In this document: piece after piece, positions 9,063-39,660 of the stretch | Numbering within the stretch: position 1 is the stretch's first letter | Layout: the number at the start of each line of letters is the position of its first letter | Assembly: GCA_020850995.1 (NCBI GenBank) | Contig: JADZDP010000177.1 | Coordinates: 4,712-68,711, forward strand | From: Deltaproteobacteria bacterium | GTDB lineage: Bacteria; Myxococcota; UBA727; VGSZ01 | DNA length: 64,000 nt | Reading direction: 5' to 3' | Translations under genes and position numbers: made by a program | Notes under the pieces: model-generated | What the model was told of the DNA's origin: nothing | Seen by the model: the letters and a program-made list of their open reading frames with translations, nothing else | Databases searched by the model: none

Positions 9063-11129
9063 ATGACGCGCACCGTGGCTCCCTTCACCCTCCGGTTCTT
9101 GCTCCTCGTGGCCGCGCTCGTCGCGGTGGCCGCCGCCTGCGGCGAGCCCTCGAAGGGTGACGCCAAGAAGGCGCCGAGCACGCCGGCCGTGGCGGCGCCG
9201 GGCCTCGACAAGGTCGCGCGCGTCGACTTCAACCGCCGCGCCGCCGAGCTGTTCTTGCCCTTGTTCTGGATCGAGGACAAGAACGGCAACAATGCCCTCG
9301 ACGTCGACGAGCTAGCGGTGTTGTGGGGCATCGGCCCGGCGCAGGCGGCGGACGCCTGGCTGAAGGATGGCGCCTTCACGAAGGCCTTCCTGGACGCCTA
9401 CGCGGCGATGCAGCAGCCGGCTGACACCGGGGCCGACGCCGCCGACCAGGCACGCCGCCAGGCCGTGCTCGACGAGCTCGGCCAGGGCCGCCCCACGCTC
9501 GTGCTCACCGACACCACGGGCTTCAGCGACAACGACAAGGCCATCGTCAAGTCCATCATCGAGGCGGCGCAGCTCATCGAGCAGATCTACGCCAAGCAGG
9601 TGGGCGTGGCAGAGCTGCGCACGACGGTGCCGAACGACGACAAGGCCTCGCAGATGTTGCTCCACCGCAACCAGACCACCGCCTGCGCGGCGCCGAAGAC
9701 CGAGAAGAACCCCGAGTGCTCGGCGGTGAAGTCCAAGCAGAAGCCGAGCTCGGGCCTGTACCCGGCCAAGCTGCAGGGGGCCGACGGCAAGTTCTGCGAG
9801 GTGCTCGAGAAGCGCAAAGACGCCGACAAGCTCTTGCACCAATTCGTCACGGTGACGGCGCGGGCGGGCGGCAAGAGCGAGGGCAACGCCGCCACCGACG
9901 AGCTCGAGCCCGTGCCCTACCACGTGGCCTACCAGGCCGAGATGGCGGCGGTGAGCGCCAAGCTCAAGGCCGCCGCCACCCACACGGGCGCCAGCGAAGC
10001 GCCCTTCGCCGCCTACCTGTTCGCCGCCGCCCAGGCCTTCCTCGACGACAAGTGGGGCCCGGCCGACGAGGCCTGGGCCAAGATGAACGCCGAGAACAGC
10101 AAGTGGTACCTGCGCATCGGCCCCGACGAGACCTACTTCGAGCCCTGCTCGCGCAAGGCGGGCTTCCACGTCTCGTTCGCGCGCATCAACCAAGACTCGC
10201 TCGCCTGGCAGAAGAAGCTCGAGCCCTTCAAGGCCGAGATGGAGGGCGCGCTCGCCGCGCTCGCCGGCCCGCCCTACAAGGCGCGCGAGGTCAGCTTCCA
10301 CCTGCCCGACTTCATCGACGTGGTGTTGAACGCCGGCGACTCGCGCGACGCGCTCGGCGGCACCATCGGCCAGTCGCTCCCCAACTGGGGCGCCGTGGCC
10401 AACGAGGGCCGCGGCCGCACGGTGGCCATGGTCAACCTCTACACCGACAAGGACAGCGAGGCGGCGTGGACCAGCCAGGCCTCTTCGCTGTTCTGCAAAG
10501 ACACCATGGCGGCCGCCAGCTTCGACCCGAAGCTCGCCGTCATGTCGACGGTGCTGCACGAGGCGGCGCACAACCTGGGCCCCGCCCACGAGTACAAGGT
10601 GGGCGGCAAGACCGACGATCAGATCTTCGGCGGGCCGATGGCCTCCATGCTCGAGGAGCTGAAGGCGCAGACCGCGGCGCTCTATTTCTCCGAGTGGCTC
10701 GTGAGAAAGGGCGCGGTGGACGCGCAGGCGGCGGCGGGCTCGCACCTGCGCGACGTCACCTGGGCCTTCGGCCACATCGCCGCCGGCATGTACAACGCCG
10801 AGGGCAAGATCAAGGCGTACAGCCAGCTCGCGGCCATCCAGATGGGCACGCTCTACAAGCAGGGCGCGCTCACCTGGAACCCCGAAGAGCTTGCCGCCAA
10901 CGGCAAGGACAAGGGCTGCGTGCGGGTCGACCTCGCCAAGTGGAAGCCCGCGGTGGACGAGCTCGCCAAGGTGGTGCTCGGCATCAAGGGGCGCGGCGAC
11001 AAGGCGCTGGCGGAGCAGACGCGCAAGGGCATCGTCGACGACGACCAGGAGTTCGCCAAGCTGCGCGAGCTCATCACCGAGCGCTGGCTGCGCACGCCCA
11101 AGGCCTCGTTCGTGTACGCCATTCGCTGA
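9063..11129 (+). CDS. Lipoprotein, putative gluzincin-type Zn metallopeptidase (HEXXH...E)
   Basis: Signal peptide plus lipobox (VAAAC). HEAAH motif (VLHEAAHNLG) with EEL 25 aa downstream. The family is not identified. Confidence 0.55.
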   Translation: MTRTVAPFTLRFLLLVAALVAVAAACGEPSKGDAKKAPSTPAVAAPGLDKVARVDFNRRAAELFLPLFWIEDKNGNNALDVDELAVLWGIGPAQAADAWLKDGAFTKAFLDAYAAMQQPADTGADAADQARRQAVLDELGQGRPTLVLTDTTGFSDNDKAIVKSIIEAAQLIEQIYAKQVGVAELRTTVPNDDKASQMLLHRNQTTACAAPKTEKNPECSAVKSKQKPSSGLYPAKLQGADGKFCEVLEKRKDADKLLHQFVTVTARAGGKSEGNAATDELEPVPYHVAYQAEMAAVSAKLKAAATHTGASEAPFAAYLFAAAQAFLDDKWGPADEAWAKMNAENSKWYLRIGPDETYFEPCSRKAGFHVSFARINQDSLAWQKKLEPFKAEMEGALAALAGPPYKAREVSFHLPDFIDVVLNAGDSRDALGGTIGQSLPNWGAVANEGRGRTVAMVNLYTDKDSEAAWTSQASSLFCKDTMAAASFDPKLAVMSTVLHEAAHNLGPAHEYKVGGKTDDQIFGGPMASMLEELKAQTAALYFSEWLVRKGAVDAQAAAGSHLRDVTWAFGHIAAGMYNAEGKIKAYSQLAAIQMGTLYKQGALTWNPEELAANGKDKGCVRVDLAKWKPAVDELAKVVLGIKGRGDKALAEQTRKGIVDDDQEFAKLRELITERWLRTPKASFVYAIR

Positions 11130-28760: not shown

Positions 28761-30872
28761 TCAGCGGGTGGCGGGCTCGACGGCGCGCCGCTCGCGCAAG
28801 ATCTGCAGCCATTGGCGCGCCGAGGCCAGCAGGATCACGACCACGCACGCGATCAGCACCGCGGTGACGCTGCTCTGCACGATGCCGTTGCGCGCTTGCG
28901 CAGGGTCGGCGGCGCGCGCCAGGGGGAGGTAGATCTGCTGGAGCGCGAGCACGCCCGCGGTCAGGGTGGTGCCGCCCACGAAGAGCAGCGGCAGCAAGGT
29001 CACCAGCGCGTAGCGTCGTCGACGAGCCTGGCGCAGGATGATGGTGGTGCCCACCACCAAGGCCACCGCGGCCAAGAGCTGGTTGGCGATACCGAACATG
29101 GGCCAGATGGTGGCGATGGAGCCGGTCAGGATGAAGTAGGAGAAGCCGATCACGATGAGGGCGCTGGTGATGAGGGCGCCGGGCAGCCACGCGGTGTCGC
29201 CCATGCGCGGCCACACGCGGCTGAGCGCCTCCTGCAAGAGGAAGCGCCCCACGCGGGTGCCGGTGTCGATGGTGGTGAGGATGAACAGCGCCTCGAACAT
29301 GATCGCGAAGTGGTACCAGTAGGCGAGCAGGCCCTTCATGCCGGGCAGCCCGGCGAACACGCGGGCCATGCCCACGGCCAGCGACACGGCGCCGCCGGTG
29401 CGCGCGGCCACCACCTCGTCAGAGGCGGCCGAGAGCGTGGGCAGGTCGTCCACCTTGATGCCCAAGCGCGCGAAGTCGGCGGCGGGCAGCTCGTCGGCGT
29501 GCGGCGCGCGCGGGTCCACGTGGTAGCCGGCGGCGGCCAGCGCCGCGTTCGAGAGGCGCAGCACCTGCGAGAGCTTGAGCTCACGCCCGGCCAGCGCGTC
29601 GAGGCGCGCGCCCTCGCCGAGGCCGAGGGCCGCGCGGTCGCGCGGGGTGAGCGCAAGGTCGACGGCGGCCAGCGCGCCAGCGTCGTTCACGAAGCCCACG
29701 GGACCGGCGTCAGGCACACGCTCGACGGCGACGACGGCGACCTTCGGGTCGGTGTTGATGGCGAAGTAGTCGGCGGGCGGCAGCGCCACGGCGGCCACCA
29801 GCGCGGTGATGCCCACCAGGCCCTCCATCAGCATGGCGCCGTAGCCGATCATGCGGCAGTCGGGCTCGCGATCGATCATCTTCGGCGTGGTGCCGCTCGC
29901 CACCAGCGCGTGAAAGCCCGAGATGGCGCCGCACGCGATGGTGATGAACACGAAGGGGAAGAGCGCGCCCTTGACCACGGGCAAGAACAGATCGGCGCCC
30001 ACGCGCACGCCGCTGGCGCTGACCTCGTTCAAGAGCGGCATCTCGATGGCGGGGTTGACCACGATGAGCCCCACCACCAGGAGCGCGATGGTGCCGATCT
30101 TGAGGTAGCTCGACAGGTAGTCGCGCGGACACAAGAGCAGCCACACCGGCAGCACGCTGGCGACGAAGCCGTACCCGGCGATGGCGACGGTGATCTGCGT
30201 GTCGCTCAGGCGCAGGTACGCGCCGAAGCCGCTCTCGGCCACGTCGCGGCCGAACACCACCGCCAGCAGCAACACCACCACGCCGACCGCGCTGGCCTCG
30301 CGGATGCCGCGCGGCGAGCCGCCGCGCACGCGATAGATGTGCAGGCCCATCAGGAGGGCCAGCGGGATCGAGACGCCGATGGTGAATACACCCCAGCCGC
30401 TCTCGGCCAGCGCGCCCACCACCACCTTGCCCAAGCCCGCCAGCGCGATGACGATGATGAACAGGATGGCGACGCTGGTGATGAGCCCCACCACGGGGCC
30501 GAGCTCGGCGCGCGCGATCTCGGCCAGCGACTTGCCGTCTCGCCGCACGCTGGCCGCCATGATGACGAAGTCGTGCACGGCGCCGCCGAGCACCACGCCC
30601 ACCAGGATCCACAGGTAGCCGGGCAAGAAGCCGAACTGCGCGGCCAACACCGGGCCGATCAAGGGCCCCGCGCCGGTGATGGCGGCGAAGTGGTGGCCGA
30701 ACAGCACCCACTTGTTGGTGGGGTGGTAGTTGCTGCCGTCGGCGAGCGCGTGCGCGGGCGTGCGGCGCTCGGCGTCGAGCACCAGCACCTTCGTCGCCAG
30801 GAAGGCCGAGTAGTAGCGGTAGCCGATGGCCAGCACGCAGAGCGCGGCCACCATGAACGTGACGGCGTGCAT
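28761..30872 (-). CDS. cstA: Carbon starvation protein A (CstA family peptide/pyruvate transporter)
   Basis: 703 aa, polytopic; CstA signature region FGHHFAAITGAGPLIGPVLAAQFGFLPG. Confidence 0.85.
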   Translation of the reverse strand: MHAVTFMVAALCVLAIGYRYYSAFLATKVLVLDAERRTPAHALADGSNYHPTNKWVLFGHHFAAITGAGPLIGPVLAAQFGFLPGYLWILVGVVLGGAVHDFVIMAASVRRDGKSLAEIARAELGPVVGLITSVAILFIIVIALAGLGKVVVGALAESGWGVFTIGVSIPLALLMGLHIYRVRGGSPRGIREASAVGVVVLLLAVVFGRDVAESGFGAYLRLSDTQITVAIAGYGFVASVLPVWLLLCPRDYLSSYLKIGTIALLVVGLIVVNPAIEMPLLNEVSASGVRVGADLFLPVVKGALFPFVFITIACGAISGFHALVASGTTPKMIDREPDCRMIGYGAMLMEGLVGITALVAAVALPPADYFAINTDPKVAVVAVERVPDAGPVGFVNDAGALAAVDLALTPRDRAALGLGEGARLDALAGRELKLSQVLRLSNAALAAAGYHVDPRAPHADELPAADFARLGIKVDDLPTLSAASDEVVAARTGGAVSLAVGMARVFAGLPGMKGLLAYWYHFAIMFEALFILTTIDTGTRVGRFLLQEALSRVWPRMGDTAWLPGALITSALIVIGFSYFILTGSIATIWPMFGIANQLLAAVALVVGTTIILRQARRRRYALVTLLPLLFVGGTTLTAGVLALQQIYLPLARAADPAQARNGIVQSSVTAVLIACVVVILLASARQWLQILRERRAVEPATR

Positions 30873-30951: not shown

Positions 30952-31623
30952 ATGGACTTGCTTCGCCAAGCGCTCGACGTGTTCTTCCACGTCGACAAGC
31001 ACCTGGTGGGCCTGGTGGCCGACTACGGCACCTGGGTCTACGCCATCCTGTTCCTGGTCATCTTCTGCGAGACCGGCCTGGTGGTGACGCCCTTCCTCCC
31101 CGGCGACTCGCTCTTGTTCGCGGCGGGCGCCCTGTGCACCCTGGGTGGCGTCGAGCAGGGCGGCCTGGACATCACGGTGCTGGTGCCGCTCTTGATCACC
31201 GCCGCGGTGGTGGGCGACCAGACCAACTACTGGATCGGCCACGTGGTGGGCCCGGGCTTCCTCGAGAAGGAGCGCATCCGCTTCATCAAGAGGGCGCACC
31301 TCGAGAAGACCCAGCGCTTCTACGAGCGCTACGGCGGCAAGACCGTCATCCTCGCGCGCTTCGTGCCCATCGTGCGCACCTTCGCGCCCTTCGTGGCCGG
31401 CGTGGGCAGCATGCGCTACCGGCGCTTCGTGTCGTTCAGCGTCGTCGGCGGCATCGCCTGGGTGGGGATCTGCTCGTTGGCCGGCTACCTGTTCGGCGAG
31501 CTGCCCTTCGTGAAGCAGAACTTCGAGATCGTGGTGCTCGGCATCATCTTCGTCTCGGTGCTGCCCATCGCCTTCGAGATGGGGCGCGGCTGGCTCGAGA
31601 GCAGGAAGGCGCCGGTGGTGTGA
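30952..31623 (+). CDS. DedA-family membrane protein
   Basis: ETGLVVTPFLPGDSLLFAAGAL and ...KTVILARFVPIVRTFAPFVAGV are typical of the DedA/SNARE-associated family. Confidence 0.8.
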   Translation: MDLLRQALDVFFHVDKHLVGLVADYGTWVYAILFLVIFCETGLVVTPFLPGDSLLFAAGALCTLGGVEQGGLDITVLVPLLITAAVVGDQTNYWIGHVVGPGFLEKERIRFIKRAHLEKTQRFYERYGGKTVILARFVPIVRTFAPFVAGVGSMRYRRFVSFSVVGGIAWVGICSLAGYLFGELPFVKQNFEIVVLGIIFVSVLPIAFEMGRGWLESRKAPVV

Positions 31624-31641: not shown

Positions 31642-31956
31642 TCAGGCGAGCTCGCCCCGGCGCGCCTTGTCGATCCACTTGGTGATCTGCTCCTCGATCA
31701 CCTCGAGGGCCTTGTTCTTGAAGGGCCGCAGCAGGAGCGGCACCTCCATGTCCATGTCGACGGCGCTGTCGCGGATCTCGAAGCTGCCCTTCATGGAGAG
31801 ACCCTTGACCCGGAAGGTGACCTCGGCGAGCTGCTCGTTGATCCACGCGATCTGCGGGTCGTACTCGGCGAAGCGCTCGGAGTAGGACTTGAGCGCCGCG
31901 TCGGCGGCCTTCTTGGCGAGTGGGATCGGGAGGTCGTGCGGGACCGAGTGCTTCAT
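31642..31956 (-). CDS. Putative polyhydroxyalkanoic-acid system protein (PHA_gran_rgn family, ~104 aa)
   Basis: MKHSVPHDLPIPLAKKAADAALKSYSERFAEYDPQIAWINEQLAEVTFRVKGLSMKGSFEIRDSAVDMDMEVPLLLRPFKNKALEVIEEQITKWI; start trimmed to M84 of the table ORF. Confidence 0.55.
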   Translation of the reverse strand: MKHSVPHDLPIPLAKKAADAALKSYSERFAEYDPQIAWINEQLAEVTFRVKGLSMKGSFEIRDSAVDMDMEVPLLLRPFKNKALEVIEEQITKWIDKARRGELA

Positions 31957-32000
31957 GGCAGTGCAGCGTAGCACTGCCGCCGGGGCAGACGTCGAGCGCG

Positions 32001-32867
32001 TCAGCTCGAGCAGTTGTTGGCCGCTGGGCTGCAAATGCCGACGTCGACCGGGAGCTGGAAGCTGCCGCCGGCGAAGCCACAACAGAGCTCGTCGCTGCCG
32101 CAGTCGTCGGTGCTCACGCACACCACCGCGTCGGTCTGACCGGCCTGCACGCAGCTGCCGGCGCTGACGCAGCTCGTCGCGTTGGTGGCGCCGTCGAGGC
32201 AGCACTCTTCGCTGAGCTCGCAGTCCTCGGCGCCGTCACAGACCACCGGCACGGCGAGGAGCGCGCCCGTGCAGCTGCCGCTGGACGCGATGCAGTTGCC
32301 GACGATGGCGAAGCTGACGTCGACGGTGACGCAGCAGACCGCGTTGGGGTCGCTGCAGGTGGTGGCGTCGCAGACCACGCCCGCCTCAGCGGAGCCCTCG
32401 TACTCTTGCCCCTGCACGAGCTCGCACGCGAGGCCGCTGCACACCTCGTTGCTCTCGCAGGGCACGATCACGGGGTCGCCGGCGGCGTTGCAGGTGCGCT
32501 CCGCCGACACGCTCTCGCAACCCGGCACGCACTCGCCCTCGCCCTCGCCCTCGCCGGGGTCGCCCTCGCCCTCGCCCTCGCCGGGGTCGCCCTCGCCCTC
32601 ACCCTCACCCTCACCTTCGCCCGCGGGCTCGCAGTCGCCGTCGTCGCACTCCTCGTCGTCGTCGCAGTCGCGGTCGCGCTCGCACTCCACGCACTCGCCG
32701 TCGACGCACAGGTTGTCGCCGAAGCAGTCGCTGGCTTGCGTGCAGTCGCCGGGCGCCAGGAAGAGGCCGCACGAGAGCGCCAAGGGTGCGAGCGCGAGCA
32801 GGAGCGTGAGCACGCCCACGCGGGCAGGCACGGGTGAGCGGACGGGGACGGGGTGCATCTTGGTCAT
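32001..32867 (-). CDS. Secreted Cys-rich lipoprotein with (GE)n linker (paralog of 54220..54915)
   Basis: Lipobox LALSC; GEGEGEGEGDPGEGEGEGDPGEGEGEGE; about 40 Cys in conserved spacing (ECVPGCE...ERTC...CDGAEDCE..EECC.DG...CGFAGG.F.LPVD.G.C.PAANNCS). Confidence 0.65.
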   Translation of the reverse strand: MTKMHPVPVRSPVPARVGVLTLLLALAPLALSCGLFLAPGDCTQASDCFGDNLCVDGECVECERDRDCDDDEECDDGDCEPAGEGEGEGEGEGDPGEGEGEGDPGEGEGEGECVPGCESVSAERTCNAAGDPVIVPCESNEVCSGLACELVQGQEYEGSAEAGVVCDATTCSDPNAVCCVTVDVSFAIVGNCIASSGSCTGALLAVPVVCDGAEDCELSEECCLDGATNATSCVSAGSCVQAGQTDAVVCVSTDDCGSDELCCGFAGGSFQLPVDVGICSPAANNCSS

Positions 32868-32897
32868 GGGACACCCTCGGAGGGACGGGGCGGAGTG

Positions 32898-32987
32898 GCG
32901 GAGAGAGAGGGATTCGAACCCTCGAGACGGTTTCCCGCCTACGCGATTTCCAGTCGCGTGCCTTCAGCCACTCGGCCATCTCTCCAC
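32898..32987 (-). tRNA. tRNA-Ser (anticodon GGA)
   Basis: Reverse complement reads GGAGAGATGGCCGAGTGGCTGAAGGCACGCGACTGGAAATCGCG...long variable arm...GGGTTCGAATCCCTCTCTCTCCGCCA, a class II cloverleaf. Coordinates approximate to 1 nt. Confidence 0.85.
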
Positions 32988-33102: not shown

Positions 33103-33192
33103 GGACAGCTGGCCGAGTGGCTGAAGGCACCTGACTCGAAATCAGGAGTACCCGCAAGGGTATCGGGGGTTCGAATCCCTCGCTGTCCGCCA
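33103..33192 (+). tRNA. tRNA-Ser (anticodon CGA)
   Basis: GGACAGCTGGCCGAGTGGCTGAAGGCACCTGACTCGAAATCAGG...GGGGGTTCGAATCCCTCGCTGTCCGCCA, divergent from the other tRNA-Ser. Coordinates approximate to 1 nt. Confidence 0.85.
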
Positions 33193-33263
33193 TCTTTCTC
33201 GACGACAAACCGCTTCGCAGCACACAAGGGCACACCCCTTGCTGCGCAGTGGTTTTCGCGCCC

Positions 33264-33338
33264 TCTGACTGGGTATCTGACAGGGAGCGGCTCGTGACGA
33301 TGACGTCTTGCCGCCGAGACAGGGTGTTTGACAGGGAA
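33264..33338. repeat. Direct-repeat motif copies (TCTGACTGGG, TCTGACAGGGAG, TTTGACAGGGAA) upstream of the NTase operon
   Basis: 33271-33286 gggtatctgacaggga; 33322-33338 gggtgtttgacagggaa. The same two motifs recur fused at 37712-37737. Confidence 0.5.
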
Positions 33339-33393
33339 AGGCCGCGAGATCGAGACTCTAGTTTTCTCGCTTCGGGAATGTTATGATCTAGAT

Positions 33394-33855
33394 ATGACGC
33401 TCGACAACGCAACCCTTCGCGACGCGTTGACCGCCCTCGGTGAGCTCCTCGTCGACCGCGGTGAGACCTACGACATCGTCGTCATCGGAGGCGGTGCATT
33501 GTTGCTCGGCGGCCACATCGAGCGGCCGACGAAGGATCTCGACGTCCTCGCGCGCATCGAGGGTGATCGCTGGCTCAGCGCGCAGCCGCTGCCCGATGCG
33601 CTGCGCGCCGCCGTCGCCGATGTCGGCGACGCGTTCGGGCTCGCGCGTGACTGGCTCAACTGCGGGCCGACGTCCCTGCTCGCGGGCGGGCTCCCCGACG
33701 GCTTCCCGGAACGGTTGAGCATCGAGCGTTTCGACGCGCTGACGCTCCTCACATCGGCGCGGTGGTGCCGCACGCACGATGCCTCCGAGGGCTTTCGCGG
33801 GCGGCAGCTTCTGCCGGTGCTGCAAGAGCTCGGTGTCGAGGTCGCCGATGTCTAG
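33394..33855 (+). CDS. Nucleotidyltransferase-fold (pol-beta superfamily) small protein
   Basis: hG[GS]-x13-DhD pattern (VVIGGGALLLGGHIERPTKDLDVLARI). Start taken as ATG 33394; the TTG start of the table ORF (33328) lies inside the repeat motif. Translationally coupled to the next gene. Confidence 0.5.
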   Translation: MTLDNATLRDALTALGELLVDRGETYDIVVIGGGALLLGGHIERPTKDLDVLARIEGDRWLSAQPLPDALRAAVADVGDAFGLARDWLNCGPTSLLAGGLPDGFPERLSIERFDALTLLTSARWCRTHDASEGFRGRQLLPVLQELGVEVADV

Positions 33856-34786
33856 CGCCGTCCAGAAGCAGGCCGCGGATCTCGCTTGGAGCCTCTGGAC
33901 GGAGCTCGGCATCGCCGGCGTCGTGCGGGAGCATGCCCACGTGGCAATCGATCCCGAGCCGCTCTTCGTCGCCACGCCGCTCCTTGCAGCGCACGACGCG
34001 CGCCTGCTCGAACAGGTGTCACGTTGGAGCGTGCTCTTCGGCGACTGGCTCGCGATGAGCCGAGTGCAGGCGCTGTGCAAGGCGGCGGAACCCACCGTGC
34101 ATGACGCGTTCGTGTCCTTCGCCGCGTCGATCCCCGGTGGGGGGCGGTGGACGTGTGAGGCCACGAAGATGTCGAAGCAGAAGAACCCGCCGCAGCTGAC
34201 GTCGATGGAGCTGCCGCTCTTGCGACCGGCGCTGGTCCGGCTGCGCCTGCGCGCGATATGCGGCGTCGGTGCACGCGCCGACGTCGTCGCAGAGCTCATC
34301 GGGCACGCGCGCGTATGGTTGCGTGCGTCCGACTTCGAGCATCTCGGCTACACGAAGAGAAACGTCGCTCGCTTGCTGTCCGAGCTCTGCGACGCCGGGT
34401 TTCTGCGGTCGCTGAAGGAGAAGAACGCGATCGCCTATCGCCTCGCCGACGGCGGGCGGTGGTCTGACCTCGTCGGCGCCACGGCCGTCACGTGGCCGGC
34501 ATGGCCCGCAATCTTCGACTTCGCCCGGTTGGCGCTGCGGCTCGATGGGGAACGTGCGAAGAGCGAAGGCGTGCGCCGGGTCGCGGCGGCCCAGACAGCG
34601 CACGCGCTCGAGCCGCTTTGCGATCGCTTGGACCTCGCGCAACCGCCGACCGCGACGGCGAATCCCCAGGCGTGGGCCGCAACGACCGCGTTCGTGGAGC
34701 GCGAGGTGGCAGCCTTCGCGGGCGCGACGTCGCCGTCGATGTCGCGTGCCGGCGGAGCTCGCGGCCGCGTCAGTGCCGCGCGTTGA
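33848..34786 (+). CDS. Hypothetical protein with predicted winged-helix segment, partner of the NTase-fold gene
   Basis: ATG 33848 overlaps the NTase stop. TKRNVARLLSELCDAGFLRSLKEKNAIAYRLAD resembles a wHTH. One Rx5H (RASDFEH) occurrence is noted but not diagnostic. Confidence 0.45.
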   Translation: MSSAVQKQAADLAWSLWTELGIAGVVREHAHVAIDPEPLFVATPLLAAHDARLLEQVSRWSVLFGDWLAMSRVQALCKAAEPTVHDAFVSFAASIPGGGRWTCEATKMSKQKNPPQLTSMELPLLRPALVRLRLRAICGVGARADVVAELIGHARVWLRASDFEHLGYTKRNVARLLSELCDAGFLRSLKEKNAIAYRLADGGRWSDLVGATAVTWPAWPAIFDFARLALRLDGERAKSEGVRRVAAAQTAHALEPLCDRLDLAQPPTATANPQAWAATTAFVEREVAAFAGATSPSMSRAGGARGRVSAAR

Positions 34787-34831: not shown

Positions 34832-35935
34832 TCAGCGTCCACATACCGGGCACGCAAGCCGCCCTTGCGCCGATGGCGCGCATCGTTCGCAAAGCAGGTG
34901 GATCTTGTCGTCGCATACCGCGGGGCGAGCGGCAGGGAGCAGGCAGCCGTCGCACGCAGGCACGTCGAGCGTGCGCGCGGCCGAGGGGAGGTGCAGGCTC
35001 AGCACGCGCTCCTCCTTCCGTCGACGCACGCGCACGTCGACGACGATCGTGGGCACTTCGACGACGGCGGCGAAGACGATCGTCGCGCGCGCACGCAACG
35101 TGTAGCGGGCGCGCAACTCCGCCAACTTCGCCGCGCGCTCATTCTCGAGATGTTCGACGCGGGCTTTGACCGCCGCCGGATCACGTTGCTTGCGACCGGT
35201 ACGCGTTTCGTAGATGAGCTCGTGAAAGTACGCATCGACGCGCTCGTGGTCGCGCCGGTGCCGGCGGGCGACGTTGTCCTGATGTGCGCCGGCGAGCGCG
35301 GCCAGCCGGGCGCGCAGCCGGGGCGGGAGGACCTCCGCGCGCACCGCAGGGAGGGCGCGGTGCGCTCCACGAAGCGCGCTCGTGGTGTCGAGCGCGAGCG
35401 CCGCGACCAGGGCCGAGTCCGGCGCGGCGCCGTCCGATGCGCACAACGCCAGCACCTCGAACGCCTCGTCGCGGTCGTCCGCCTCGACGACGAGGCGCGT
35501 GCCGACGAACGCGTACGCCTCGTTGCGAGCGCGTACCGCGCCGACGTCGACAACCGCGTTGCGCAGCGCGAAGCGGGCCGCGAGCGCCTCGGCCTGGCTC
35601 GCGCGCGGTGCCGCCAGCTCTGCGTCGGCGACGACGTACCCACGCAGCGACGAGCGCTCATCGACCAACCGATCGAGGAGCCCGGTCCCGAGCCCGCACG
35701 CAACGGCCCCTGTCCGTGCGGCTGACGCGACCTGCACCTCCTCCTGGAGCGCGAGCCGGGTGGCCAACGCCGACGGGAGGATCGCGAGGGCCTCCTCCTC
35801 GCCGTCGGCTGCGTTGGCGACCTCGACGAGCGCGCCGTCGCGCGCGAGGGCGTCCGCGCAGAAGCGCACGGGGCTCGGCAGTGTCGCCGGCAGTGTCGCC
35901 GGCAGTGTCGTCGGCAGCGCGGGCAGCGAGGTCAT
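34832..35935 (-). CDS. Hypothetical protein with C-terminal Cys-rich Zn-ribbon-like tail, co-operonic with SNF2 helicase
   Basis: C-terminus VPACDGCLLPAARPAVCDDKIHLLCERCAPSAQGRLACPVCGR (8 Cys + 1 His). The 4-nt overlap (35932-35935) with the upstream helicase gene implies coupling. Confidence 0.5.
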   Translation of the reverse strand: MTSLPALPTTLPATLPATLPSPVRFCADALARDGALVEVANAADGEEEALAILPSALATRLALQEEVQVASAARTGAVACGLGTGLLDRLVDERSSLRGYVVADAELAAPRASQAEALAARFALRNAVVDVGAVRARNEAYAFVGTRLVVEADDRDEAFEVLALCASDGAAPDSALVAALALDTTSALRGAHRALPAVRAEVLPPRLRARLAALAGAHQDNVARRHRRDHERVDAYFHELIYETRTGRKQRDPAAVKARVEHLENERAAKLAELRARYTLRARATIVFAAVVEVPTIVVDVRVRRRKEERVLSLHLPSAARTLDVPACDGCLLPAARPAVCDDKIHLLCERCAPSAQGRLACPVCGR

Positions 35936-37626
35936 GCGGCGAAGTCCTCGCCGAACACCGCGTCGTCGAGCTTCTTGGAGTTCTCGTACGTTCCGCGCGC
36001 CGCGCCGATCTCCGCCGCGAGCGCGTCGAAGCCACGGTCGATCTCCGCCTCGTCCTTGCTGGCGGCGTAGAGCGCGAGCACGCGCTCCTCGAGGTCGCGG
36101 TCATCGGCGAGGTTGCCGAGCACCATGTCCATCTCGCCGACGACGAGCTCGAACAGATGGAGCCGCCGATCGAGCACGTCGAGCAGCTTCTCCTCCGCCG
36201 ACCCCTTCATCGCGAGGTTGTAGACGTGCACGTCGCGCGTCTGGCCCATGCGGTGGACGCGGCCGATGCGCTGCTCGAGCAGCATCGGGTTCCACGGCAC
36301 GTCGAAGCTGACGACGACGTTGCAGTGCTGCAGGTTGGTCCCCTCGGCGCCGACGTCGGTGGACACGAGGGCGCAGCGCTCCTCGCGGAACCGCTCGACG
36401 GCGAGCGCCTTCTCGTCGGCCGACTGCGCGCCAGAGACCACGACGTGCCGCACGCCAGCGTCGTTGAACGCGCGCTCGATCGCCGCCAGCGTCGCGCGGA
36501 AGCGCGTGAACACCAGCGCGTGCCCGCCGTGCGCCCGCACCAATGCGACCAGCTGCTCGAGCTTCTTCGTCTGCGTCGCGGCCCGTGCCGCCTCGCGGGC
36601 AGCGGCGAAGGCGGGACCGTCGAGCGCGGTCGCGCGGTCAAGCGTGGCGCGCACGGCGTCAGGGCTCGAGCCCGCCTCGAGGAGCAGCGTGGTGCCGAGG
36701 AGCGTTCGCCGCGCGGCCTGCGCGTCGGCGCGCACGAGATCGACGACCCGATCGTAGAGCGCGCGCTCCGCGGCCAGCGGCTCGACGACGGCGGTGGTCA
36801 CGAAGCGCGGCGGCAGCTTCAAGCCGCACGCCGCGCGCGTGTTGCGCACCATGACGTCCCCAAGCAACTGTCGCAGCCGCTCGCGGTTCTTCGGCGAAGT
36901 CGGATCGGACTTGTCGACGAACTGCGCCTTGAACGCCGACGCCGTCGTGAGCTGGCCCGGCCGCAGCAACGTGACGAGCGCGTACAGCTCCTCGAGGCTC
37001 GTCTCGATCGGCGTGGCGGTGAGCAGCAGCAGGAAGCGGCTCTTCAGGCCGTCGACGAGCTTGTAGCCGAGGGTAGACTGCTTCTTGATGTGGTGGGCCT
37101 CGTCGACGACGACGAGATCCCACGAAGCGCTCTGGAGCAGTGGCGCGACTTTGGCGCCGCGCGCCTTGGCGAGCGACGCGAGCACGACACCGTCCCTCGC
37201 GAGGAACGCCGCCGGGTCTTGTTCGAAGGCGTGGTCATCGAGCGTCGCGGCCTGCACTCCGGCCTTCGCGAGGAGCTCGCCCCGCCACTGCGGAACGAGC
37301 GCCGGCGGTGCGATCACGAGGGTGCGGCGCGCCATGCCGCGCAGTTGGTACTCGCGCAGCACGAGGATCGCCTCGACGGTCTTGCCGAGCCCGACCTCGT
37401 CGGCGAGGAGCGCACGGCCGCGGAGCACGCGGAGCACGCGCCGGACGGTGTCGTGCTGGTAGGTGTGCGCGTCGACGCCGGCGAGCGACTGTGGCGAGAG
37501 CAGGTCGGTGAACGTCGCGGCCGACGCGAGGGTGTGCGCGCGCACCGCGAGCGAGAGGTCGACGAGCGTCATGGGCGCGCGCAGCAGCGCTGTGACGTCG
37601 CCCGTCGTCACGTCGGCGATCTCCAT
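35932..37626 (-). CDS. Compact SNF2-family (HepA/RapA-like) helicase/ATPase
   Basis: Motif I DEVGLGKT; motif II DLVVVDEAHHIK; motif III LLLTATP; C-terminal helicase motifs ...TDVGAEGTNLQ... and RIGRVHRMGQ; 564 aa. Confidence 0.8.
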   Translation of the reverse strand: MEIADVTTGDVTALLRAPMTLVDLSLAVRAHTLASAATFTDLLSPQSLAGVDAHTYQHDTVRRVLRVLRGRALLADEVGLGKTVEAILVLREYQLRGMARRTLVIAPPALVPQWRGELLAKAGVQAATLDDHAFEQDPAAFLARDGVVLASLAKARGAKVAPLLQSASWDLVVVDEAHHIKKQSTLGYKLVDGLKSRFLLLLTATPIETSLEELYALVTLLRPGQLTTASAFKAQFVDKSDPTSPKNRERLRQLLGDVMVRNTRAACGLKLPPRFVTTAVVEPLAAERALYDRVVDLVRADAQAARRTLLGTTLLLEAGSSPDAVRATLDRATALDGPAFAAAREAARAATQTKKLEQLVALVRAHGGHALVFTRFRATLAAIERAFNDAGVRHVVVSGAQSADEKALAVERFREERCALVSTDVGAEGTNLQHCNVVVSFDVPWNPMLLEQRIGRVHRMGQTRDVHVYNLAMKGSAEEKLLDVLDRRLHLFELVVGEMDMVLGNLADDRDLEERVLALYAASKDEAEIDRGFDALAAEIGAARGTYENSKKLDDAVFGEDFAA

Positions 37627-38009: not shown

Positions 38010-39191
38010 ATGAAGAAGGCCACAGCCAGACTACGAGCGACCCGGTCGATCACGCTCTCTATCGCCAACTTCGCCCAGATCCGCAGTGTCGACCTCGCGC
38101 TTGGCGACCTGACCGTCCTTGTGGGTCCGCAAGGCGCAGGCAAGAGCCTCGCTCTACAGTGGCTCAAGGCGGGGATGGACGGGAAGCAGGTCATCGATGC
38201 GCTGCGCGCCGCCGGTCACCCCACCGAAAGATCCGACGTCGTCGTTGACCTCATCTTCGGCACCGGCATGGCACCGGCATGGCGGGCCGACTCGACCGTC
38301 ACTCTCGACGGAAAGACCATCACTCCGAAGGTACTGAGTCGTGTTGGAAACGGAGAGGAGCGCCTCTTCTTCATTCCTGCGCACCGCTCGATGCTGATTA
38401 GCGACGGCTGGGCGGCGCCCTTCCAAAAGCTCGGCTCCGACACCCCGGCAGTGGCGCGCCTCTTTAGCCAGAACCTCTTTGATCGCTTCAGCGGCAAGGA
38501 CGCGGGCACGCTCTTCCCCGTGGAGAAGCGCCTCAAGGCGGAGATCCGAAAACAGATCGACGACGCTGTCTTTCACGGTGGCAAGGTCGGAATCGCAGAG
38601 GATGCTCAGCATGCCCGTCGCCTCCGCCTCGCGCACGGGGACATGCACCTGCCGTTCATGACGTGGACTGCGGGCCAGCGCGAATTCACCCCACTCCTCC
38701 TCGCCCTCTATCACCTCCTCCCTTCGACCAAGCTGCGCAAGCGCAAAGGGACGGACTGGGTCGTTCTCGAGGAGCCGGAGATGGGACTTCACCCGCAAGC
38801 GATCACAGCTGTGATGCTGCTCGTCCTCGATCTCCTCTGGCGCGGCTACCGGGTCGTGATGTCGACTCACTCCCCGCACGTGCTGACCATGCTGTGGATG
38901 ATGCAGCGCCTCAAGGAGAACGCCGCTCGGTGGCAGCTCGTCTGCGAGGCCTTTGACGTGAAGGTACCGGCGCAGATGCGCAAGGTCGCGGAGGCCGCGC
39001 TCCAAAAAGACTACCGCGCCCACTTTCTGACATTCGGCAACGATGGGCATGTGACGTCGACGGAGATCACCGGTCTCGACCCATCTTCGGAGAACGAGGG
39101 CGAGGCCGAATGGGGCGGTCTCACGGGCTACTCGTCGCGTTTCGGTGACGTCGTGCGCAAGGCAGTGAACGAGGCCGAGAGTGGGCGCTAG
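38010..39191 (+). CDS. ABC-type (AAA_21/OLD-like) ATPase
   Basis: Walker A GPQGAGKS; Walker B/D-loop WVVLEEPEMGLHPQ; H-loop STHSPHVL; 393 aa. Codon usage and GC look visibly lower than the surrounding DNA. Confidence 0.7.
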   Translation: MKKATARLRATRSITLSIANFAQIRSVDLALGDLTVLVGPQGAGKSLALQWLKAGMDGKQVIDALRAAGHPTERSDVVVDLIFGTGMAPAWRADSTVTLDGKTITPKVLSRVGNGEERLFFIPAHRSMLISDGWAAPFQKLGSDTPAVARLFSQNLFDRFSGKDAGTLFPVEKRLKAEIRKQIDDAVFHGGKVGIAEDAQHARRLRLAHGDMHLPFMTWTAGQREFTPLLLALYHLLPSTKLRKRKGTDWVVLEEPEMGLHPQAITAVMLLVLDLLWRGYRVVMSTHSPHVLTMLWMMQRLKENAARWQLVCEAFDVKVPAQMRKVAEAALQKDYRAHFLTFGNDGHVTSTEITGLDPSSENEGEAEWGGLTGYSSRFGDVVRKAVNEAESGR

Positions 39192-39660
39192 CAAGGGCAG
39201 GAAGGCGACGCCCGTAAGGGCCGCGCTGGTCGACAACAGCCACCTGCTCAACCTCATTCAGGAAGGCCTCGGCGCGCTCAAGAGCTCGGACAAGGCCCTC
39301 ATCGCTGCCGAGCTCAAGTCCGCCTTCCTCGACAGCATCGACATCGACACAGGGCTCAGGGCGGGACACGATCAGGAGAATCGCTGGGACTACTTGCTAG
39401 GTCACGGGGCGAGAGAGGTTGTCGTTGCGCTCGAGACGCACGCAGCTCGCCAAGGAGAGATTCGCACGATCATCAGGAAGCGCCGCGCGGCGCTTGAACA
39501 GCTCAGGCCCCACCTGCGCGCCGGCTCCAAGATCACCGCGTGGTTCTGGGTTGCAACCGGCTCCGTCCGCTTTGCCGACACAGAGAAGGCCCCCCGCATA
39601 CTCGATCAGAATGGGATCACGTTCGTCGATAGGTGCCTCAAGGGGGCGCACCTCCGATGA
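39181..39660 (+). CDS. Small hypothetical protein (159 aa) coupled to the ABC ATPase; possible effector
   Basis: Overlaps the ATPase 3' end by 11 nt. No motif recognised with confidence (acidic-residue cluster ...VVVALETH...). Confidence 0.4.
   Translation: MGASKGRKATPVRAALVDNSHLLNLIQEGLGALKSSDKALIAAELKSAFLDSIDIDTGLRAGHDQENRWDYLLGHGAREVVVALETHAARQGEIRTIIRKRRAALEQLRPHLRAGSKITAWFWVATGSVRFADTEKAPRILDQNGITFVDRCLKGAHLR

Follow-up and report, generated by a model that had tools for sequence, protein, structure and literature searches.

A probable AbiE/MenAT-like toxin-antitoxin module with reversed gene order and a new partner family, apparently a toxin-dead remnant in a deltaproteobacterial contig

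The gene pair and the question it raises

In a stretch of 64,000 nucleotides (hereafter, the window) from contig JADZDP010000177.1 of a Deltaproteobacteria bacterium (Myxococcota; assembly GCA_020850995.1, positions 4,712 to 68,711), two genes overlap on the forward strand, the first with the signature of a nucleotidyltransferase (NTase) and the second with a stretch resembling a winged helix-turn-helix (wHTH). MenT/AbiEii NTase toxins are among the most abundant effectors of defence and toxin-antitoxin systems, and their control by unrelated antitoxins is an active question. What kind of module does this pair represent, and does it still work in this genome? In a preliminary description it had been taken for a possible toxin-antitoxin or abortive-infection (Abi)-like module, and this proposal gained support from synteny, coupling of the two genes, one-sided decay, a putative operator, and the MenT-like fold and active site of the NTase. 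The interpretation that we favor, with a probability of roughly 0.65, is that the locus represents a toxin-antitoxin module of the AbiE/MenAT kind, in which the gene order is reversed and the antitoxin belongs to a new family, and of which this genome retains a toxin-dead remnant with an orphan antitoxin or regulator. The two-gene module is widespread, and so far unnamed and undescribed. The features on which the argument is built are the following:

33394-33855, forward strand: ORF1, remnant of a DUF6036/AbiEii-MenT-like NTase gene, 153 aa, assigned by Pfam and by alignment to 194-aa relatives
33848-34786, forward strand: ORF2, intact partner gene, 312 aa, predicted antitoxin and autorepressor
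33848-33855, forward strand: 8-nt overlap, ATGTCTAG, where the 3' end of the NTase gene contains the partner start codon
33744..33745, forward strand: junction of a 123-bp in-frame deletion (1-nt ambiguity), located by DNA alignment with the metagenomic contigs L001 and L002

The pair proposed from the sequence is real, with a Pfam DUF6036 match in ORF1 and a central winged helix in ORF2. The position of the partner start codon inside the NTase gene indicates translational coupling, and partner and NTase genes overlap by 8-20 nt in 116 of 126 loci (by 8 nt, as in the window, in 35 of them).

The window NTase as a deletion allele

The closest homologue of ORF1, a protein of 194 aa (P0122), was identical to it apart from 41 added residues, VRFASRVDQIAFKLYAAADHWPGPRNRHLQDLKALRPREEE, and alignment to the 194-aa relatives showed that residues 118-158 of the 194-aa ancestor are absent from ORF1. 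Contigs L001 and L002 both carry the 194-aa gene and are ~99% identical to the window outside the deletion, over a region that spans the 3' part of a tRNA-Ser(CGA) gene (the whole tRNA in L001) and the partner gene, and extends into the downstream gene. The deleted allele (P0121) was found on nine contigs, and the six listed came from six separate samples, with the same flanking genes. As it recurs with the same flanks in separate samples, the deletion is a natural polymorphism, not an assembly error. ORF1 homologues are 189-194 aa long (190-194 aa being the norm of the family), and the non-canonical NTase size pointed out in the preliminary description was thus an artefact of the deletion, given the 194-aa allele on near-identical contigs. 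For annotation purposes, the 153-aa "minimal NTase" of this locus is a remnant and not a new size class.

According to an AF2 model of the full-length allele (pLDDT 95), the deletion takes out the strand 116-120, the helix 123-136 (including D125, K130 and D136) and the helix 144-152 (including H145 and D148). Motif III (of the K-L-x-A type) and the acidic motif IV both lie inside the deletion and are missing from the window allele, which keeps motifs I and II (I-G32-G33-G34 ... R44 T46 D48-L-D50). Toxicity of AbiEii is abolished by the substitutions K173A, R180A and D192A (PMC3985639), and that of MenT3 by K189A and D211A (PMC7450476). Because the deleted motifs III and IV are those whose substitution kills toxicity in these proteins, the window NTase is very probably inactive, and the module, having lost both motifs, is probably no longer a working toxin-antitoxin pair. 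The coexistence of deleted and full-length natural alleles provides a ready toxin-dead control pair.

Conservation of the pair and its hosts

Synteny was scanned with the partner as query, using one genome per species and retaining the 80 best loci. The NTase gene was located directly upstream of the partner, on the same strand, in 78 of the 80 species genomes; hence the two genes form a conserved two-gene module, and the gene order, earlier described as the reverse of that of AbiE, is shared by these 78 loci. Hosts were mostly uncultured Myxococcota, Chlamydiota and Actinomycetota, with a few Planctomycetota, Verrucomicrobiota and Chloroflexota. All-against-all clustering of the neighbours in the 80 loci revealed no third conserved gene, and no relatives were found on mobile DNA, either on IMG/VR viral contigs (searched with the partner) or on PLSDB plasmids (searched with both proteins). 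The locus points to a large unstudied branch of ~2,100 clusters at 50% identity, mainly from metagenome-assembled genomes (MAGs) of Myxococcota, Chlamydiota and Actinomycetota. In this branch the gene order is reversed, the partner is new and has three domains, and the operator is sharply defined, all of them features open to direct test.

All of the 80 best genome matches were MAGs, none of them a cultured isolate, and about one third belonged to Chlamydiota (Parachlamydiales, Rhabdochlamydiaceae). One locus (L014) had a second, partial NTase copy at ~9389-9851, ~7 kb downstream of the intact module on the same contig.

One-sided decay of the NTase gene

Among the 80 loci found with the partner, both genes were intact in 61, a damaged NTase accompanied an intact partner in 16, both genes were damaged in one, and the reverse combination was not observed. 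The 16 NTase lesions comprised five frameshifts, nine partial genes and two absent genes, and were distributed over independent species genomes (loci L012, L034, L036, L039, L050, L055, L057, L063, L066, L069-L072, L074, L076 and L080). As a control for ascertainment, metagenome contigs were searched with NTase motif III as query, and loci with an intact NTase were considered. A damaged partner was found in none of the 49 judgeable loci, all of which had an intact, single-ORF partner; twelve partners of this reverse set that appeared damaged were in fact intact, and differed by a longer linker or a variable N-terminus. The difference between the two sets of loci, obtained with different queries, was significant (damaged NTase in 16/77 vs. 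damaged partner in 0/49, Fisher p = 2e-4), also when frameshifts were excluded (11/72 vs. 0/49, p = 0.003). The bias runs against target size, as the partner gene is the longer mutational target. In addition, three independent in-frame internal deletions (in the window, L057 and L074) preserved both the start codon and the overlap with the partner. This pattern is as expected for an NTase that is harmful without its partner and a partner that is harmless alone, and is the opposite of the polarity of MNT-HEPN pairs.

NTase family, active site and fold

Window ORF1 matched the Pfam family DUF6036 (PF19502) with 28.6 bits (gathering cut-off 23.6) over residues 17-53 only. It aligned to positions 11-47 only of the 164 in the profile, compared with positions 11-106 for the full-length allele P0122 (31.5 bits), and a match to the whole domain was not found in the window. 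A profile check for AbiEi or DUF families had been suggested for both proteins, and for ORF1 this was the family that it returned. With AbiEii/DUF1814 (PF08843), ORF1 reached 21.2 bits, below the cut-off of 22.5 and in its N-terminal part only, while the full-length allele scored 31.3 bits, above that cut-off. Because the latter match covers only positions 3-67 of the 238 in the profile, the NTase family appears to be a distant, shorter relative of AbiEii. Relatives matched DUF6036 in 21 of 21 cases and AbiEii in 20 of 21. A full-text search of the library of papers at hand retrieved no mention of DUF6036 or PF19502.

Residue conservation was computed over 132 distinct intact NTase homologues. 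G32, G33, R44, T46, D48, D125, K130 and D148 were present in all of them, and D50, D136 and H145 in 131. The minimal signature hG[GS]...DhD from which an NTase had been proposed is therefore borne out by G32, G33, D48 and D50, as well as by a MenT-like fold, similar to that of the MenT1 and MenT4 toxins. The family motifs F-K130-L-Y-A and [KR]-H145-x-x-D148 resemble motifs III and IV of DUF1814 toxins, and the loop R44-x-T46-[KR]47-D48-x-D50 has the same spacing as R76-x-S78-K79-D80 of MenT3. In MenT3, S78 is the autophosphorylation site by which the antitoxin switches the toxin off (PMC11375011). The corresponding position, two residues before the first catalytic Asp, is occupied by T46 in 132/132 homologues, for which a role as phospho-acceptor is predicted.

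The main rival interpretation, that of a harmless enzyme with its own repressor, has to be weighed at this point. The NTase would then be a non-toxic enzyme modifying a small molecule (an antibiotic or a metabolite), like ANT(2'')-Ia or Lnu, with no toxin-antitoxin relation to its neighbour. ANT(2'') is structurally as close to the NTase as the MenT proteins are; however, MenT1 and MenT4 reach equal or higher scores, and the spacing within R-x-T-[KR]-D is that of the MenT phospho-acceptor loop (PMC11375011). This loop and the one-sided decay set the pair apart from ANT(2'')-Ia (AadB) and Lnu: with a harmless enzyme, decay of the regulator would be expected to be at least as frequent as that of the NTase, in contrast with the counts obtained (16/77 vs. 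0/49). To our knowledge, neither of these enzymes has a conserved wHTH partner with coding overlap. Winged-helix repressors of the ArsR/SmtB and MarR types are single-domain dimers of 100-150 aa, whereas the partner is a 300-aa protein with no evident metal-site motif and with strongly conserved additional N- and C-terminal domains, which, together with the near-universal coding overlap, is atypical for a simple regulator. Moreover, the genomic neighbourhood is not conserved, hence the pair is not embedded in any pathway. On this balance we consider a harmless enzyme unlikely.

The partner protein

The partner was modelled with high confidence (AF2, pLDDT 93, pTM 0.90) as a six-helix N-terminal domain (residues 3-100), a linker, an ArsR-like winged helix (126-207) and three C-terminal helices (218-290); residue numbers refer to a query starting at 33851 and are one lower than in the full protein. 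The winged-helix-like stretch of the preliminary description thus corresponds to a central, ArsR-like domain. Residues W13, S14, E18, G20, H28, R51, L52, W59 and R71 of the N-terminal domain and R132, R134, G138, R142, A143, K169 and R170 of the winged helix are invariant in the family, and all are kept in the window.

Searches of Pfam, NCBIfam and PADLOC assigned ORF2 to no family above threshold, in agreement with the suggestion of an unclassified variant, and returned only weak matches to ArsR/Crp-type helix-turn-helix domains at residues ~163-200. A profile of its N-terminal domain found nothing below E = 0.06 among PDB sequences, and a Foldseek search against the PDB gave no match with E <= 1e-3 (query TM-score at most 0.23). 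Apart from the winged helix, nothing in these searches was related to the partner in sequence or in structure. Its family comprised 230 matches in a 90% database, most of ~300 aa, and 2,103, 1,572 and 457 representatives of 50% clusters at E <= 1e-3, 1e-10 and 1e-30, respectively. In some representatives, which far exceed 300 aa (P0247, P0253, P0265, P0276 with 746 aa, P0286 with 1591 aa, and others), the family region occupies the N-terminus, and the excess length may reflect C-terminal extension or fusion. A subclade (L120, L124, L149, L152 and L153) had an enlarged linker between the N-terminal domain and the wHTH.

Two known partner types were considered and rejected. The check for AbiEi gave no Pfam match above threshold in the partner, and AbiEi_4 was touched weakly in only 3 of 41 family members. 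No AbiEi-type antitoxin (COG5340, with an N-terminal wHTH and a C-terminal domain) is present upstream of the toxin gene in the window. As for HEPN, there was no Pfam match, no HEPN protein among the fold matches listed, and no conserved Rx4-6H motif. The initial comparison with "MNT-HEPN or AbiEi/AbiEii logic" consequently holds for the likeness to AbiE, and fails for MNT-HEPN, in which the 312-aa protein would be the toxin, and the NTase a MntA-like antitoxin that modifies it. The NTase falls in the size class of minimal NTases and its gene precedes that of the partner, an order known from many MNT-HEPN pairs, and the partner is mostly helical; nevertheless, the missing motif and a decay pattern of the opposite polarity, with the NTase dispensable or toxic, make this assignment highly improbable.

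Putative operator and promoter

The region immediately upstream of ORF1 contains the following elements:

33351..33391, forward strand: operator-like extended palindrome placed by the family consensus, CGAGA (33351-55), N9, TCTCG (33365-69), CTT, CGGGA (33373-77), N9, TCTAG (33387-91), followed by AT and the ATG
33359-33364, forward strand: weak -35 position, TAGTTT
33382..33387, forward strand: -10-like hexamer, TATGAT, 6 nt before the ATG, placed by the consensus of 46 loci

A TCTCG-AWT-CGAGA palindrome was detected upstream of the NTase gene in several phyla, including Chlamydiota and Myxococcota. Sites with two mismatches or fewer occurred in 85 of 126 unique upstream regions, against ~1.75 expected in shuffles, and in the upstream regions exact copies of the palindrome reached 150-190 times the density found over the remainder of the loci. 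In most cases its centre lay 22-23 nt ahead of the start codon. The position-specific consensus of 46 loci, CGAGA-N9(TTGACT)-TCTCG-AWT-CGAGA-N9(TWAnnT)-TCTCG-NN-ATG, extends over 41 bp with four half-sites and encloses the -35 and -10 elements. In the window, the last two half-sites have one mismatch each; the central site, with one mismatch, is centred at the modal position of -23 from the ATG. The family promoter looks leaderless, and the location of the TATGAT hexamer implies a leaderless or near-leaderless transcript in the window. A generic sigma-70 scan of the window returned no canonical promoter, and we infer its position from family conservation alone. In Chlamydiota loci, a GGAGG Shine-Dalgarno spacer before the ATG replaces the leaderless layout, and a repeated GAAGTTTAW element stands in front of the operator units.

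In several of the loci where the NTase is damaged, the operator has been retained and lies closer to the partner by a corresponding amount. Autorepression by the partner at this palindrome would be the natural reading, because the partner is the sole DNA-binding protein that travels with the operator, and R132, R134, R142, K169 and R170 of its winged helix are invariant. Autorepression through promoter inverted repeats has been demonstrated for AbiEi (PMC3985639, PMC7319586).

Upstream of the operator, a 25-nt direct repeat was found at 33267-33291 and 33318-33342 (80% identical, 51-nt spacing, GACWGGGTRTYTGACAGGGA..GGC), the second copy of which contains TTGACA. It was rejected as an operator, since it lies outside the family-wide pattern.

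Proposed mechanism and comparison with known systems

By analogy with MenT1 and MenT3, the full-length NTase (~192 aa) would attach nucleotides to the 3' ends of tRNAs, blocking translation. The ArsR-like winged helix of the partner is predicted to bind the palindromic operator over its own promoter, with autorepression as the result, and its N- and/or C-terminal helical domains to neutralise the NTase, possibly by triggering autophosphorylation of Thr46 in the manner of MenA and AbiEi antitoxins. Promoter, start codon, frame and overlap are all untouched by the deletion in the window, so that the intact partner would still be expressed.

Several observations weigh against this proposal. Absence from the plasmid and viral contigs searched is unusual for classical addiction modules. 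The two locus sets of the decay comparison are different collections, each selected for one intact gene, and five of the 16 NTase lesions, the frameshifts, could be MAG assembly errors. The AbiEii match is limited to the N-terminal third of the Pfam profile, and the partner lacks similarity to known antitoxins outside the wHTH, its neutralising role being a deduction from genetics. Finally, for every member of the family we infer toxicity and antitoxicity, as well as DNA binding, the targeting of tRNA and phosphorylation.

The closest known system is AbiE (AbiEi/AbiEii of Streptococcus agalactiae and Lactococcus; PMC3985639, bioRxiv 10.64898/2026.01.19.700257). It shares with the present family an overlapping bicistronic operon (found in the window as well), an NTase with motifs I-IV of the DNA polymerase beta type, a winged helix in the partner, and an inverted-repeat operator at the promoter, bound by AbiEi in AbiE and presumably by the partner here. 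It differs in that the NTase comes first in the present family and is shorter (~192 aa vs. ~250-300 aa), and in that the partner is not AbiEi/COG5340, with a central instead of an N-terminal wHTH and flanking domains without known relatives. The locus is not a member of AbiE as defined because its order is reversed, its partner is not AbiEi/COG5340, and its NTase is of the short DUF6036 type. The MenAT1 and MenAT3 systems of Mycobacterium tuberculosis (PMC7450476, PMC10435456, PMC11375011) show only ~16-17% sequence identity to the NTase, and the antitoxin proposed here, encoded downstream, would belong to a fourth and unrelated family. With MntA/HepT, a type VII system (PMC7641770), the family shares a small NTase placed first and a helical partner in a two-gene operon; in that system, however, the toxin is the HEPN RNase, with the NTase as its antitoxin, whereas here the decay marks the NTase as the harmful component.

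The MenA antitoxins comprise three unrelated families (PMC11375011), beside which the partner would be a further, fourth one. A bolder version of this idea, which we put forward tentatively, is that the partner is a structurally distinct fourth family of MenT/AbiEii antitoxins that would neutralise by a mechanism of its own or through Thr46 autophosphorylation, and would repress a leaderless operon via the 41-bp operator with four half-sites. Orphans would be kept by selection, for instance as anti-addiction factors against incoming full-length modules. If true, such selection would explain the coexistence of deleted and full-length alleles in environmental populations.

Genomic neighbourhood of the module

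Downstream of the pair, two genes with a 4-nt overlap on the reverse strand, 35932-37626 (-) and 34832-35935 (-), encode a 564-aa SNF2 helicase (DrmD/BrxH-like, E = 1e-64) and a 367-aa protein with a C-terminal zinc-ribbon/RING-like motif and a weak match to the DrmD C-terminal tail (E = 1e-3). Together they resemble a DrmD-like protein in split form, and further DISARM genes are absent from the vicinity. They are followed by a complete PDC-M56 candidate defence pair at 38010-39191 (+) and 39181-39660 (+), with an 11-nt overlap, in which A is an AAA_21/AAA_15 ATPase (E = 1.8e-117) and B was assigned with E = 3.4e-21. The module, the DrmD-like helicase and the PDC-M56 pair look like a small defence-gene cluster.

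This setting bears on a further possibility, which elaborates the function of the toxin-antitoxin module and is not a strict alternative to it. The module might be a phage-defence system acting by abortive infection, whose partner would serve mainly as a sensor or repressor released on infection, the orphan being kept as an anti-addiction or cross-regulatory factor. AbiE itself is an Abi defence system (PMC3985639), the window pair stands beside the helicase and the PDC-M56 A/B pair and next to tRNA-Ser genes (a neighbourhood characterised for the window), and the genomic context varies among genomes. No defence model was matched, however, and the PADLOC match to AbiEii was weak (E = 1e-3); a role in phage defence is accordingly regarded as possible, if doubtful.

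The module starts ~200 nt past tRNA-Ser(CGA), one of two divergent tRNA-Ser genes at 32896-32985 (-) and 33103-33192 (+), with anticodons GGA and CGA. The variable arm of tRNA-Ser(CGA) differs in L001 by apparently compensatory changes (CCCGCAAGGG vs. GGGCAACCG). Just past this gene lies a probable terminator of the tRNA, at 33207-33255, formed by a 16-nt inverted repeat (88% complementary, with a 17-nt loop) and a TTTT behind it.

On the other side of the tRNA genes, the neighbours include housekeeping genes: a CstA carbon-starvation transporter at 28761-30872 (-) (E = 7e-198), a DedA/VTT-domain membrane protein at 30952-31623 (+), and a PHA_gran_rgn protein at 31642-32205 (-). Given these housekeeping neighbours up to that point, an island-like segment therefore begins around the tRNA-Ser genes. 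At 32001-32867 (-), a 288-aa protein without a Pfam match is predicted to be secreted, and is Cys-rich with a (GEGE)n/(GDPGEGE) acidic repeat.
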